From Escherichia phage vB_EcoM_phAPEC6: a stretch of DNA of 64,000 nt. Below the pieces are notes generated by a model. The model saw only the letters and a list, made by a program, of their open reading frames with translations. It was not told the origin of the DNA and did not search any database. The stretch lies in sequence record MK817115.1; one strand, given 5' to 3'. Positions 3,171-55,925 of this stretch are shown here, piece by piece (the stretch's first letter is position 1; each line of letters begins with the position of its first letter). The translations under genes were made by a program, and so were the position numbers.

Positions 3171-4607
<1,437 letters not shown>

Positions 4608-4608
4608 A

Positions 4609-6084
<1,476 letters not shown>

Positions 6085-6220
6085 CTAGTACCATCACTTA
6101 AGATTATACCATTATCACAAACATCAATCACAGTACCCGTTACCTTCACACCACCAGTAAGATAAAAATCATATATGACATTAGCATCTATCGTAAAAAT
6201 ATCTTTCATACATTATACCC

Positions 6221-6246
6221 ATAAGAAAAGGGATTCATAGAATCCC
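6221..6246 (-). terminator. Intrinsic terminator downstream of nrdB
   Basis: GGGATT / AATCCC stem followed on the minus strand by TTTTCTTAT. Confidence 0.5.
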
Positions 6247-6259
6247 TGTTAGTTAGAAT

Positions 6260-7384
6260 TTATAGTTTGAATGGTGAGAATGTATCTACTTGGATATCAT
6301 TCACAATACCACCAATGATGTAAGAACTTATTTCAGTTTCTTGTGGTGCAACTTGTACTGAACCACCACTAACCCAATGCTCAGTCCAAGGTAGAGGGTT
6401 ACTCTTAGATACGGTATATGGACATTTAATTCCTAGTGCAGTCATACGCTTAGAACCAATCCAACGAACATATTGTTTTAGAATTTCTGCATTCAGTCCA
6501 ATGATTGAACCATCTTTAAAGAGGAAGTCTGCCCAAGCTTCTTCTTGACGGATAGCAGACATAAACATTTCCAGTACTTCATCATAACACTCTTCTGCTA
6601 TTTTTACCATATCTGGATCTTCTTTTTTGAGAAGACGTAGAATCATTTGGGTTGCTGCTAGGTGTAGGTTTTCATCACGACAGATTAGACGGATAATCTT
6701 AGCATTACCTTCCATTAGATTGTTTTCAGCAAACGCCCAAGAACACGCAAAGCTTGCATAAAAACGAACACCTTCAAGAATGTTAATACTATTCAGGCAC
6801 AACCAAAGTTTTTTCTTTAGTTCGTATAAACTAATTTCGACTGTTTCACCATTGATTGTATGTGTACCAACACCTAATGCACGGTATAGAGTACCTAGTA
6901 CATCAAGATCATCATAGTATTTGGAAACATCAGCAGCACAATCAGTGATTTCTGGAATGTCCAACATAGTATCAAATACTTCAGAAGGATTAGGATAAAT
7001 GTTACGAATAATATGAGTGTATGATTTACTATGAATCGCACCTTCAAAGAATGCCCATGTCTCTATAAAGTTCTCTAGTTCAGGTAGAGATGCATATGGA
7101 AGTAACATTAGGTTTGGACCACGACCTTGTACGGAATCAAGAAGAATTTGACGTTTCAAGTTAGAGGTAAAAATGTGCTTCTCGGAATCATTAAGGTTGG
7201 CAAAATCAATTTTATCTTTAGATACGTCAACTTCACCAGGAGTCCAGAAGAAACTTTTCTGTTGCTCTGTTAGTTTTTCAAGTGTAGAGTATTTGTTACT
7301 TTCAAAGCGTTGGATATCAACACTTTCATCAAAAAACATATTTTTTTCTAGGTGAGACTTCTCGTTAATTTTGAAAACTGACAT
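6260..7384 (-). CDS. nrdB: Ribonucleotide reductase small subunit (class Ia)
   Basis: 374 aa; di-iron ligand motifs FFEGAIHSKSY and RDENLHLA; uninterrupted ORF (no intron). Confidence 0.85.
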   Translation of the reverse strand: MSVFKINEKSHLEKNMFFDESVDIQRFESNKYSTLEKLTEQQKSFFWTPGEVDVSKDKIDFANLNDSEKHIFTSNLKRQILLDSVQGRGPNLMLLPYASLPELENFIETWAFFEGAIHSKSYTHIIRNIYPNPSEVFDTMLDIPEITDCAADVSKYYDDLDVLGTLYRALGVGTHTINGETVEISLYELKKKLWLCLNSINILEGVRFYASFACSWAFAENNLMEGNAKIIRLICRDENLHLAATQMILRLLKKEDPDMVKIAEECYDEVLEMFMSAIRQEEAWADFLFKDGSIIGLNAEILKQYVRWIGSKRMTALGIKCPYTVSKSNPLPWTEHWVSGGSVQVAPQETEISSYIIGGIVNDIQVDTFSPFKL

Positions 7385-28164: not shown

Positions 28165-33422
<5,258 letters not shown>

Positions 33423-53551: not shown

Positions 53552-54388
53552 ATGGCTATGAATCCACTTGCTAAGTACACTAAAATTGAAGAGATCAGTA
53601 CTAAGTTAGTTACAAACGGCGTTATTCCTTATAAAGAAGGAGTTCTAGGTCCAAAAGGTGTCAAATGTGGAGTTTGTGCACGTAGTGCACGTGATGAAAT
53701 GACACTTAATACCCCCGATATGTTACTAAACGGAGATGCAGTATCCCGTGTTATTGAAAACTGTGTTCCTAATGTAATTGACGCTGATGAGTTGTATGTA
53801 AATGACGTTGAAATGCTTCTTATTGCTATTAAAGTTGCTTCTAAAGAAGAAACATATGATATTAACGTTGTATGTCCTGAATGTGAAAAAGAAGGTCGAT
53901 TTGAACGTAATCTATCATATCTTCTTGAAACTGCACAAGCATTTGAAGAAATCCCATCAATTGATTTAGATAATGGACTACGTTTAGAATTTAGACCACT
54001 GACATGGAAAGAATATTCATCGTTTGCTGAACGCATGTTCAGTGAGCAGCAGAAGACTAAGTTTCTTGAAACTGCTGATATTGATAAAGATGAAAAAGTA
54101 AAAATATTTTCTGAAGTATTTGAAAACATGGCTCAACTTAACTTCGATATGATTGGTGGAGTTATTGCAAAAATTATAACACCAGATGGTGATGAAGTAG
54201 TTGAAAAAGAATTTATTAATGAATGGCTTGGACAACAATCGAAGGGAGTACTTAAACTAATTCGTGAAAAAATGGATGAAGTACTTGAAATTGGTGTATC
54301 TCATAGTATGGAAGTAGAATGTGATGGATGTAATCATCAATGGGAAATTGATGGACTAAAATATGATCCTAGTCATTTTTTCGAGTAA
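53552..54388 (+). CDS. Hypothetical late protein with three Cys pairs
   Basis: 278 aa; CGVCARSA, CPECEKEG and CDGCNHQ; exact TATAAATA at 53510-53517. Confidence 0.45.
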   Translation: MAMNPLAKYTKIEEISTKLVTNGVIPYKEGVLGPKGVKCGVCARSARDEMTLNTPDMLLNGDAVSRVIENCVPNVIDADELYVNDVEMLLIAIKVASKEETYDINVVCPECEKEGRFERNLSYLLETAQAFEEIPSIDLDNGLRLEFRPLTWKEYSSFAERMFSEQQKTKFLETADIDKDEKVKIFSEVFENMAQLNFDMIGGVIAKIITPDGDEVVEKEFINEWLGQQSKGVLKLIREKMDEVLEIGVSHSMEVECDGCNHQWEIDGLKYDPSHFFE

Positions 54389-54597
54389 TGCTTCTCCAGT
54401 CATCTCCTGAAGAAATACAAGAAGTACTGAAGGAGATAGAACTGAATAAGTCAGAAATCAAAAATGCACTAATGGAATGTTCTGTATATATGGATAACAT
54501 TGACTATGGAACACTCCTTAATATGCCATTAATAGATAGAGACTTATTAGTTAAGTCTTTTAATAAAAAAATTAAAAAACAAAACGAGAAGCACTAA
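54388..54597 (+). CDS. Hypothetical small protein
   Basis: 69 aa; start overlaps the upstream stop; followed by a strong terminator. Confidence 0.3.
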   Translation: MLLQSSPEEIQEVLKEIELNKSEIKNALMECSVYMDNIDYGTLLNMPLIDRDLLVKSFNKKIKKQNEKH

Positions 54598-54608
54598 TTT
54601 TCATATAG

Positions 54609-54634
54609 CCAGCACATTGTTGCTGGTTTTTTTT
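54609..54634 (+). terminator. Intrinsic terminator
   Basis: CCAGCA / TGCTGG stem followed by eight T. Confidence 0.65.
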
Positions 54635-54850
54635 GGTTTTAAACTACAGAATTATTTGAATTGAATTATGAAAGGATTAATTTTAATATTATTGGATTCA
54701 TCTAACTCATTTCATTCGTTAGCTGAAGAATATTCGTTACTACGTAACTCATATTCATTTAATTAAATTAATTATAAAGAACTTTAAAAGATTTAATACT
54801 TGACGGGATTTGTTGAGGACATTTTCATCCCCCCGCAGGGGAATGAAGAC

Positions 54851-54876
54851 AATAAAAAAGAGACAATGAAGTCTCT
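54851..54876 (-). terminator. Intrinsic terminator closing the candidate ncRNA
   Basis: AGAGAC / GTCTCT stem followed on the minus strand by TTTTTTATT. Confidence 0.55.
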
Positions 54877-55307
54877 ATTTCTTGACGCTGATGGTTTCAG
54901 CATTTATTGTATTGCGAATTTCTTAAAAATATATTAAGAACGAAAGCGGGTTGCTCTGTTTCTCTCTATCGCAGTCATGTGCAACGGTCGTCAGTCTTAA
55001 TCATCCTGACACTCACCTGAAAGTCTATACAATCAAACTTCAGGCTGTTTATTAAAATCACTTAATAAACTCCCTTAGCAAATCTGGTAAGGTGCGATCC
55101 TTATATGTCTATCTAGGAACTCTCTGTATGCTTATCGGAGTTCTTTATTGAGCCGCATTGCCGTGAGGGGTTCAAACTATGCCCACATCTAACGGGTTTC
55201 TTTTGCTCATCGCACTGTTGAACTGCTCATCTGCCATCTACATTTTCGATAGGATCAGGTTCTAATTTATATGCATTTCTGCATTCAACAGGATTGTCAT
55301 TACTACA
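54851..55307 (-). ncRNA. Candidate structured non-coding RNA (about 450 nt, unknown class)
   Basis: No ORF of 60 aa or more on either strand across 54598-55433; early-type promoter at 55314-55342 points into it and a minus-strand intrinsic terminator sits at 54851-54876; several hairpins between them. Confidence 0.35.
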
Positions 55308-55313
55308 ACAAAC

Positions 55314-55342
55314 ATTATAGCACAAACTTTAAAGTTGTCTCA
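55314..55342 (-). promoter_or_regulatory. Early-type promoter, TGAGAC-N17-TATAAT with GTGC before the -10, driving the ORF-free region
   Basis: Same motif and spacing as the promoters upstream of primase, gene 32 and rnh, but no ORF lies downstream. Confidence 0.45.
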
Positions 55343-55395
55343 CTATTTTTATAAAAATATTCATTAAGTACTTAAAATATTGCAAATAACTAATC

Positions 55396-55403
55396 TATAA
55401 ATA
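55396..55403 (+). promoter_or_regulatory. Late promoter box TATAAATA
   Basis: Exact match about 30 nt upstream of the EndoVII-like ATG; GGTGAGGA SD follows. Confidence 0.55.
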
Positions 55404-55433
55404 TTTTGATAACAAATAGTTTGGTGAGGAATT

Positions 55434-55925
55434 ATGAAAAAAAGATTAAAAGATAGTAAGGATGCTGCAAACTATCGAAACGAATTGCTAAAGAAACAAA
55501 ATGGAATAGATCCTATAATTAAAGAACCAATAACTAAACCAGTACTGGATCACTACCACTATGGTAACCAACATTGTAGACAAGTTCTTCAAAATGAAGT
55601 CAATGCTTGGGAAGGAAAGGTACAAAACAGCTTCAATCGATATATGAAGCACTTAACTGATAAACCATTATATGAGGTACTCAGAAATCTTGCTGATTAC
55701 TTAGAGCGTAATAACAGCATTCCTGACGATGAACAAGTTATACATCACACTGCACTAACTGTGGATGTTAATAAGTTTAAAAGGCTTCCAGCAACACAGC
55801 AAAACGCGATTCTGGAAGGGTTAGGAGTTGTCCCTGGTAGTAACACTACTGCTCGTGTAAAGCAAGCTAGAAAGCTGATTAAGGACGGTAAATTAAATAT
55901 GGTTGATATAAAAAAAGGGAGCTAA
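55434..55925 (+). CDS. Endonuclease VII-like protein (possible gp49 equivalent)
   Basis: 163 aa; LDHYHYGN ... QNEVNAWEG resembles the EndoVII His-Me finger, but the Zn-binding cysteines of T4 EndoVII are absent; exact TATAAATA upstream. Confidence 0.45.
   Translation: MKKRLKDSKDAANYRNELLKKQNGIDPIIKEPITKPVLDHYHYGNQHCRQVLQNEVNAWEGKVQNSFNRYMKHLTDKPLYEVLRNLADYLERNNSIPDDEQVIHHTALTVDVNKFKRLPATQQNAILEGLGVVPGSNTTARVKQARKLIKDGKLNMVDIKKGS

Follow-up and report, generated by a model that had tools for sequence, protein, structure and literature searches.

Few large RNAs have complex conserved folds, and RNase P, self-splicing introns, OLE, GOLLD, ROOL and raiA each opened new biochemistry. The described systems closest to the element examined here are GOLLD and ROOL, which usually lie near tRNA genes, and ColE1 RNA II and the T4 origins oriF, oriG and oriE, which start replication from a transcript primer. 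GOLLD and ROOL, which are associated with phages, assemble into cages consisting only of RNA (10.1101/2024.12.08.627333). In the Pseudomonas jumbo phage PA5oct, RNA-seq has mapped four transcribed regions devoid of open reading frames (ORFs), lncRNA001-004, to the main coding strand; they measure 236-619 nt, and two of the four make up 2-5% of the phage reads (PMC7318152). Our subject is an element on the minus strand of a 64,000-nucleotide stretch of DNA from Escherichia phage vB_EcoM_phAPEC6 (MK817115.1; this whole stretch is referred to as the window), within positions 54598-55433, a region that the initial annotation had singled out as a candidate large structured non-coding RNA (ncRNA). 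We conclude that it is almost certainly a non-coding, highly structured minus-strand RNA gene of an undescribed family, with a conserved promoter of its own, at least 16 helices, three pseudoknots and near-invariant linkers.

The element shares with GOLLD and ROOL, which are phage-borne non-coding RNAs of 0.5-0.8 kb, its many covarying helices and pseudoknots; like them it is recognised only by comparative analysis and is probably abundant during infection. Unlike them, it is multi-copy in each genome, stands beside integrases in bacterial islands and has no tRNA genes in its window (neither tRNA nor tmRNA genes were found there by ARAGORN). It also gives no cmscan match to either class, and their hosts are Lactobacillales and rumen organisms, whereas the element belongs to jumbo phages of Enterobacteria. 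The PA5oct transcripts come from a related jumbo-phage lineage and provide a precedent for abundant ORF-less RNAs, but lncRNA001-004 have been assigned neither a structure nor a family, and nhmmer detected no similarity of the element to lncRNA001 or lncRNA002. With RNA II and the T4 origins the element has in common an untranslated transcript, a promoter usable by the host, a G-rich segment with an A+T-rich region downstream, several dispersed sites per phage genome (as for the T4 origins) and a length of ~0.5 kb (as for RNA II). In contrast, the T4 origins share little sequence among themselves, a promoter and an unwinding element being sufficient, and neither their transcripts nor RNA II are known to need pseudoknots or invariant linkers; the element here is known from sequence and occurs on no plasmid in PLSDB.

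The initial annotation had been unable to assign the region to a known class, and our comparisons agree. A cmscan search of the 64-kb window against Rfam 15 returned no match at the gathering score; at E<=10 over 54400-55600, only short sRNA families far below gathering appeared, and those that were aligned match terminator or promoter sequence. No credible match was obtained over the element in 10 homologous loci either. On these failed model matches we rate the RNA as a new class, different in family from GOLLD and ROOL and from RNA II and the T4 origins. Full-text literature searches retrieved no description of the element: the CBB genome paper is silent about it, and the UE-S1 GenBank record marks an unexplained 'repeat_region' there. 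Fragments of it could be present in a bulk catalogue that reports 10,006 unnamed viral RNA candidates (PMC10690425).

Several resemblances were followed and set aside. Short words reminiscent of RNase P RNA (AGAAACCCGUUAG; ACAGAGCAACCCGC) are embedded in a different pairing topology and give no cmscan match. The words GAUGAG...GAAA...GUC recall a hammerhead ribozyme, without the CUGA core and without an Rfam match. A tmRNA-like T-arm in GGGGGG...CAAAUCCC would require an alternative pairing that is not kept in the diverged subfamily described below. A BLAST comparison of the four paralogous RNAs with a whole phage genome, made with an antisense or guide role in mind, yielded only chance-level matches of 15-19 nt, and the element, considered as a plasmid origin, found no match in PLSDB.

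Fold, transcription signals and conservation of the RNA

By BLAST, positions 54598-55433 are 100% identical to 304727-305562 of Escherichia phage PBECO4 and 99.9% identical to phage 121Q, both of them Asteriusvirus members, that is, jumbo phages of ~350 kb in the Rak2-like group. The region is free of ORFs as the initial annotation had stated, the longest having 45 aa and none reaching 60 aa, and its 836 nt exceed every other ORF-free gap of the window, the next having 250 nt and the median being 41 nt. On the minus strand, which carries 63 of the window's 76 tiled ORFs, conserved blocks alternate with helices whose sequence changes are compensatory. The features of the element are listed here from the promoter onwards.

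55314-55342, minus strand: promoter of extended -10 sigma-70 type, with a -35-like TGAGAC at 55337-55342, TG at 55321-55322, -10 TATAAT at 55314-55319 and N17 spacing
54850-55307, minus strand: predicted primary transcript of ~458 nt, its ends placed from the promoter and the terminator, its start (55307 +/- 2) from spacing only
55072-55300, minus strand: 5' domain, nine covarying helices including one pseudoknot
55284-55291, minus strand: 5' arm of pseudoknot H1, CUGUUGAA, pairing with 55215-55222
55215-55222, minus strand: 3' arm of pseudoknot H1, UUCAACAG, in the loop of hairpin 55224-55226/55212-55214
55117-55143, minus strand: hairpin GAACUC...GAGUUC, with both-sided changes in 5/5 pairs
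54878-55050, minus strand: 3' core domain, a 13-bp hairpin, four further helices and two pseudoknots
55027-55033, minus strand: 5' arm of pseudoknot PK1, AUUGUAU, in the loop of the 13-bp hairpin (55015-55046)
54906-54912, minus strand: 3' arm of PK1, AUACAAU
54981-54985, minus strand: 5' arm of pseudoknot PK2, GUUGC
54950-54954, minus strand: 3' arm of PK2, GCAAC, in the loop of hairpin 54962-54966/54942-54946
54881-54887, minus strand: motif CGUCAAG, first copy, before the terminator
54851-54876, minus strand: intrinsic terminator AGAGAC-UUCAUU-GUCUCU with U-tract (stem-loop 54859-54876)
54824-54847, minus strand: G/C hairpin UUCAUUCCCC-UGCG-GGGGGAUGAA with G-run, downstream of the terminator
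54799-54805, minus strand: motif CGUCAAG, second copy, after the terminator and the G/C hairpin
54640-54798, minus strand: conserved A+T-rich module, 20% G+C against 34% for the window

We aligned 35 sequences in two domains by MAFFT, from sequence only, and scored these alignments against structures that we specified ourselves; the domains were analysed separately because RNAalifold produced a noisy structure on the full-length gapped alignment. The pairing controls consisted of 500 shuffles per domain and of pairing partners slid out of register. In the 3' core, the 41 proposed pairs are formed in 97.4% of the alignment cells, compared to 78.2% in the shuffled and 37-46% in the slid controls; 33 of them show changes on both sides, and the covariation score is 0.589 against 0.218 after shuffling. 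For the 38 pairs of the 5' domain the corresponding values are 95.8% versus 76.4% and 29-42%, with both-sided changes in 26 pairs and a score of 0.496 against 0.142. Altogether 59 of the 79 proposed pairs (41 + 38) have changed on both sides, the three pseudoknots included, and in neither domain were the observed values reached by any of the 500 shuffles, a control that does not preserve phylogeny. A phylogenetic artefact would nevertheless be a very unlikely source of the covariation, because the slid controls fall far lower, because helices without a single mismatch contain three to five pair types and because the paralogue lineages are independent. The large structured ncRNA that had been proposed is therefore borne out by covariation far above both controls in two independent sequence-only alignments; in the related phages, where the initial annotation had suggested looking for covariation, compensatory changes are present and the intact protein that would have spoken against an RNA is not encoded.

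The proposed pairs contain 135 G·U cells and 6 A·C cells, and the folded strand is therefore the minus strand of the window, in agreement with the strand originally given for the RNA; the same asymmetry would equally fit single-stranded DNA of the minus-sense strand. All seven pairs of PK1 covary, with 99.6% of cells paired and 99.5% across the 62 non-redundant members of the family, and its sequences vary between paralogues while matching within each copy; the diverged subfamily has new complementary variants in both arms. PK2 is paired in 100% of cells, with GC/AU/GU and CG/UA/AU variants, and H1 shows both-sided changes in seven of its eight pairs. The same helices hold in a profile hidden Markov model (HMM) alignment of the 62 members. 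In one metagenome copy, L141, the PK1 loop UUUGCGU does not match the downstream arm AUAUGAG, and its 3' part is identical to that of another copy, L200; L141 looks like a recombinant between two copies.

The hairpins named in the initial annotation are all present in the window, and two of them, GAACUC/GAGUUC and GUCAG/CUGAC, are conserved and covarying, but GCUGA-AACCA-UCAGC is out of register in other copies. The UGCA-GAAA-UGCA hairpin varies in sequence and keeps its position among copies, and GNRA tetraloops recur in the variable 5' hairpin. The helices drift in sequence, whereas linkers, GAUAGAGAGAAACAGAGCAACCCGCUUUCG among them, are over 90% invariant, a combination typical of RNAs that act through tertiary structure. 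A mini-module of ~35 nt (..UGCGAUUGAUCUUUUUACAAUAUAGAUCCGUCC..) occupies two alternative sites among members, either between the domains or inside hairpin P12. It lies in P12 in copy A of phage UE-S1 (3549-3706 of locus L001), the orthologue of the window copy, where the record places its 'repeat_region'; the window copy is without it, the empty site being at ~54925-54935.

The promoter that had been proposed to point into the region, TGAGAC-N17-TATAAT, is confirmed at 55314-55342. In the alignment of the 35 first-collected members TATAAT is invariant, mostly as TGnTATAAT, with a TGGRAC/TGAGAC box 16-18 nt upstream; among 54 further members, TATAAT lies upstream in 49 and TGnTATAAT in 42, the flank being too short to judge in three. 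The pattern TGRRAC-N15-18-TATAAT matches the window at seven places, each of them on the minus strand and most of them having TG ahead of the -10 element:

6008, 11705, 18095, 28125, 37021, 55314 and 60015, minus strand: TGRRAC-N15-18-TATAAT matches

These matches define a predicted phage promoter class readable by host sigma-70 polymerase. Because other minus-strand genes of the window have the same class of promoter, we infer that host RNA polymerase would transcribe the RNA gene from ~55307 immediately after infection. Most transcripts of the window copy would end at the terminator near 54852 to give an RNA of ~455 nt. The predicted 458-nt transcript has a minimum free energy (MFE) z-score of -3.0 relative to shuffles, and the nhmmer core match of the window RNA spans 55261-54799.

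The minus-strand terminator assigned to 54851-54876 exists, with its stem-loop at 54859-54876 and a U-tract to ~54851; it is found, covarying, in 28 of the 62 non-redundant members and is absent from the remainder. Sequence conservation, however, runs on past it to ~54640. The G/C hairpin and the second copy of the motif occur in all members; the G-run is present in every member aligned, and the hairpin is 94.8% paired, its 5' arm varying from C to U only. The two CGUCAAG copies, which flank the terminator and this hairpin, share the same variant in 57 of 61 members (CAA/CAA in 21, CAG/CAG in 36, mixed in 4); both sites read ACGAAG in the diverged subfamily, and both have changed again in phage RaK2. 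Conservation extends for ~110-150 nt beyond the second motif, where some copies have a second promoter of the same class.

The opposite proposal, that the region is ordinary spacer, a decayed protein gene or a set of small ORFs, has practically no probability left. It could draw on the three to four 'hypothetical proteins' of 32-45 aa that some deposited genomes annotate over the element, but ORFs of this size are not conserved, the longest ORFs in the 35 members (34-90 aa) are inconsistent in strand, frame and position, the indels among homologues are not multiples of three, and the 59 pairs with compensatory changes already refute it. In RaK2 (ORF245; 935-1141 of locus L213), E9.1, JP4 and other records, 'hypothetical proteins' have been annotated that overlap the RNA gene. 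Such annotations are probably spurious and conceal the element in databases; the RNA is invisible in annotated genomes, where its regions are either blank or filled with spurious ORFs of 30-45 aa.

Copies in jumbo phages and in bacterial islands

The initial annotation described a single ncRNA region. An RNA gene is indeed there, but it is not single: each genome has four paralogous copies. In the complete genome of phage ECO103 4-12-1 they lie at ~18, 128, 208 and 262 kb, all in one orientation and 70-79% identical over 400-500 nt, and in PBECO4 at 38, 94, 195 and 305 kb, with gaps between neighbours of roughly 56, 81, 101 and 110 kb. The element occurs in 71 phage records covering every Rak2-like genus, most of them with four to five places; Klebsiella Alcyoneusvirus phages show one to two places by BLAST, and RaK2, in which BLAST finds fragments only, nevertheless has full-length diverged copies at two syntenic loci. 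The host genera of the carrier phages are Escherichia, Salmonella, Klebsiella, Erwinia, Serratia, Yersinia, Cronobacter, Pectobacterium and Xanthomonas. GC skew tracks the orientation of the genes without switching at any of the four copies, which for a phage is a weak test.

Members from IMG/VR and from metagenomes were collected by pattern scans on a better-conserved block followed by nhmmer; the first pattern and protein-anchored scans had found few loci. IMG/VR loci contributed 58 hits and loci from metagenomes and genomes another 79; overall there are 89 full-length copies, reduced to the 62 non-redundant ones at 97% identity. From their inferred start, family members extend over 440-610 nt to the second motif. 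In a more diverged subfamily only the 3' domain is recognisable. In a 7-kb stretch of an uncultured relative with a diverged RNA, the RNA is the sole segment that matches cultured phages at the DNA level, and the RNA is under stronger selection than its neighbours. One contig of the diverged subfamily, L150, encodes a Thg1-like tRNA-His guanylyltransferase (PF04446) and, just upstream of the RNA, a DUF6267 protein (3246-3995, 6019-7128). The diverged copy in L200 (34-825; 1008-1650) adjoins a truncated ORF that by eye resembles a fragment of a bacterial MFS transporter, and is followed by ORFs of 1366, 624 and 418 aa that look tail-fibre-like by eye; L200 could be an integrated element or else a chimeric assembly.

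Copies B, C and D occupy gaps of 650-740 bp flanked by co-directional genes, downstream of the phage sigma-factor gene and upstream of a hypothetical gene and an N6-adenine methyltransferase gene; these neighbours are found again in Serratia phage BF and RaK2. The window copy converges on baseplate genes, as does its orthologue in phage BF. One RNA copy of phage BF (locus L021, 259440-260369) has an ADP-ribosylglycohydrolase gene directly downstream.

The element is also present in bacterial chromosomes. Two of 5,426 complete E. coli genomes have one full-length copy each, with 70% identity over 90% of the query. The copy in E. coli LR-29-1 (NZ_AP027515.1, ~3,473-3,484 kb) is complete from promoter to tail (417 bits) and sits in a 10.7-kb island of low G+C content beside ffs, together with a tyrosine integrase interrupted by IS3, a resolvase and the candidate defence system PDC-M45 (DuOB, DUF488, mSLOG-DUF4326); no replication-initiator gene was seen in this island. 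Silvania hatchlandensis and seven metagenome contigs follow a common plan, in which the chromosome junction is succeeded by an integrase (tyrosine or large serine), the co-oriented RNA, a convergent gene for a CI-like HTH-S24 repressor, a 286-aa protein and an LprI-like protein.

L214 (LR-29-1), L208 (Silvania), L156, L165, L180, L182, L193, L202 and L203: island loci carrying the RNA

The integrase lies directly upstream of the RNA in eight of these nine loci, and the E. coli island has one ORF between the two. The 286-aa protein is distantly similar to the product of the gene that immediately follows the RNA in the E. coli island. The Silvania cargo comprises DarT and an ADP-ribosylglycohydrolase (a pair at 2043-3725 of L208) and a UvrD-like (UvrD/GajB-like) helicase; the presence of an ADP-ribosylglycohydrolase beside the RNA in both phage BF and the Silvania island may be a coincidence or a link to defence and counter-defence. 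A tblastn search with the two proteins encoded on either side of the RNA in the island detected no homologue in Rak2-like phages, and no capsid or packaging genes were seen in the islands. A search of 72,556 plasmids (PLSDB) did not find the RNA element. The islands appear to be a previously unrecognised family of low-G+C integrative elements of Enterobacteriaceae with a fixed core, an exchangeable integrase and anti-phage cargo, and those that carry the RNA may be satellites of jumbo phages. Their copies suggest either piracy, at the RNA level, of a phage cis element or an arms race at that level.

Possible functions

The four to five copies, the strong early promoters and a conservation above that of neighbouring proteins indicate a function central to jumbo-phage infection. 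We tentatively favour the reading that the element specifies an abundant early RNA that would act in trans by binding a partner. Such an RNA would work through its three-dimensional fold, as neither an mRNA nor an antisense RNA, and would be needed in stoichiometric amounts, for which four to five strong-promoter genes would be kept, as cells do for rRNA. It would bind and sequester, or scaffold, a partner that all hosts of the clade possess and that might be a host protein or a small-molecule signal, e.g. a nuclease or an immune sensor, and the island copies would serve their mobile elements likewise or compete with the phage for the partner. We lean towards this model because invariant linkers together with pseudoknots point to tertiary structure as the functional object, because multiple strong-promoter genes are the usual route to much RNA quickly, and because syntenic retention of paralogues is also seen for rRNA operons in collinear genomes. 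A simple 5'-leader role does not fit the window, BF and island copies, since no co-directional gene is adjacent to them; the window and BF copies converge on the neighbouring genes, and the island copies on a repressor gene. The model has parallels in 6S RNA, CsrB and adenovirus VA RNA, which are stand-alone, highly expressed, structured RNAs that sequester a protein stoichiometrically, although there is no homology to them; on reading the alignments, without a systematic search, we noticed neither a CsrB-like repeated binding motif nor a 6S-like promoter-mimicking bubble.

A number of observations weigh against such a trans-acting RNA. About half of the copies have no terminator and would be co-transcribed with downstream genes. 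The G/C hairpin, second motif and A+T-rich module that form the tail equal the core in conservation, which an RNA ending at the terminator leaves unexplained. Hitch-hiking elements usually copy the cis sites of their helper, not its trans factors, and here the complete unit is found in islands without any protein in common with the phages. The literature searched contains no transcript data (RNA-seq) for any phage of the Rak2-like group.

The most developed of the other explanations is a cis-acting replication origin, which we consider possible but doubtful. The folded early transcript would form an R-loop near the G-run and the A+T-rich module and be processed into a leading-strand primer; the four to five copies would be the origins of the 350-kb genome, and the islands would pirate an origin so that the replisome of an infecting phage would amplify, and perhaps package, them. 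This model accounts better than the trans-acting one for the conservation past the terminator, for the universal G-run followed by a stretch of 20% G+C (a possible unwinding element, as a sequence property only) and for the capture by islands, where the complete unit stands directly downstream of the integrase in eight of nine islands that share no proteins with the phages and where the 10.7-kb E. coli island shows no replication initiator of its own. The dispersed copies are all co-oriented with the main direction of transcription, their promoter needs no phage factor, and plasmids bearing T4 origins replicated in T4-infected cells. The model deals poorly with the elaborate fold, however: no primer or R-loop RNA is known to need anything comparable to three covarying pseudoknots and long invariant linkers, and the restriction of changes opposite the G-run to C-to-U indicates selection on a folded single strand, not on a DNA duplex site. 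Further points against it are the lack of a GC-skew switch at the copies, the absence of apparent iterons in the aligned flanks and of an annotated initiator gene beside the copies, and the absence of the element from the 72,556 plasmids. A broader formulation, to which we assign a rather low probability, is that the unit, comprising early promoter, pseudoknotted RNA, G-run and A+T-rich module, is a portable RNA-based cis element that starts replication or marks phage DNA and was copied by islands, apparently more than once, thereby letting the jumbo phage amplify and mobilise them. If this cis-element and piracy reading were true, the islands would be the first jumbo-phage satellites, and would practise piracy via an RNA gene and not via a protein or a cos/pac site; if the origin model were true, it would show how very large T4-like genomes start replication.

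It is unlikely that the element is an RNA-only machine, whether a ribozyme or an 'ornate' RNA that assembles itself in the manner of GOLLD and ROOL. Its size, pseudoknot density, invariant junction nucleotides and recurring GNRA tetraloops would be suitable, and the phage-associated RNA-only cages are a precedent; PK1 might even be intermolecular, because it always matches within a copy and covariation is blind to the difference between intramolecular and homo-oligomeric pairing. In phi29 pRNA such covarying loop-loop pairs are intermolecular, and PK1 could in principle do likewise, but pRNA is a single-copy RNA of 174 nt with a different fold, and there is no evidence for a packaging role here. 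The RNA resembles no Rfam ribozyme or ornate-RNA model, no cleavage or ligation product can be deduced from its sequence, and ARAGORN detected no tRNA gene in the window. A cis-acting leader acting as a processive antiterminator of the put/nut type, with which RNA polymerase would read through the downstream terminator and co-directional gene blocks, seems still harder to sustain. The order promoter, RNA, terminator, genes would suit it, as would the co-directional genes immediately following copies B, C and D, the lack of a terminator in about half of the copies and the minus-strand genes that follow beyond the inverted cassette even at the window copy. However, the gene that follows the window copy and the island copies is convergent, some copies are succeeded by another promoter of this class, which makes downstream genes independent of read-through, and known antiterminator RNAs are five to seven times shorter than the RNA here. 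Even less can be said for a non-autonomous mobile element, whether MITE-like, an intron or an IS200/605-type end with an omega-like RNA, which we regard as highly improbable: the multiple copies in a single orientation, a 7-nt repeat readable as a target duplication, the mini-module at alternative sites and the movement of the unit between phages and islands could all be so explained, but distant genera share syntenic sites (endonuclease VII/baseplate, methyltransferase, sigma factor), and the copies are ~30% diverged, hence ancient and not actively moving. Moreover, the twin motif changes at both sites together, unlike a passive duplication, no transposase, TnpB/IscB or intron-interrupted gene is annotated beside the copies, and the RNA matches no group I, group II or HEARO model.

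The RNA is tractable: it occurs in cultivable E. coli phages (121Q, PBECO4, G17 and phAPEC6-like), measures ~450-550 nt, and is represented by more than 60 diverse sequences with three covarying pseudoknots.

Flanking genes and minor observations

The genes and signals around the RNA gene in the window are the following.

53552-54388, plus strand: T4-type baseplate protein (PF12322)
flanking ORF, plus strand: 69 aa
54607-54638, plus strand: terminator of the convergent baseplate-hub operon (stem-loop 54607-54628 with T-run), outside the RNA gene
55396-55403, plus strand: TATAAATA, late-promoter-like box before the endonuclease VII gene, outside the RNA gene
55434-55925, plus strand: endonuclease VII gene, flanking
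flanking gene, minus strand: gp46-like recombination nuclease

Both plus-strand signals had been recognised in the initial annotation, and we recover them, the terminator as a stem-loop at 54607-54628 plus T-run and TATAAATA at 55396-55403. Downstream of the window RNA copy, minus-strand genes resume beyond an inverted cassette of two genes. Phages ECO103 4-12-1 and EC22.5-2 match the window only to ~55374. In ECO103 4-12-1, an insertion of 1.08 kb (~28899-29977 of locus L005) separates the RNA promoter from the endonuclease VII gene. It contains a single minus-strand ORF of 323 aa with repeated treble-clef zinc-finger domains (DUF723, DUF4379), which is probably a free-standing gene of the homing-endonuclease type.

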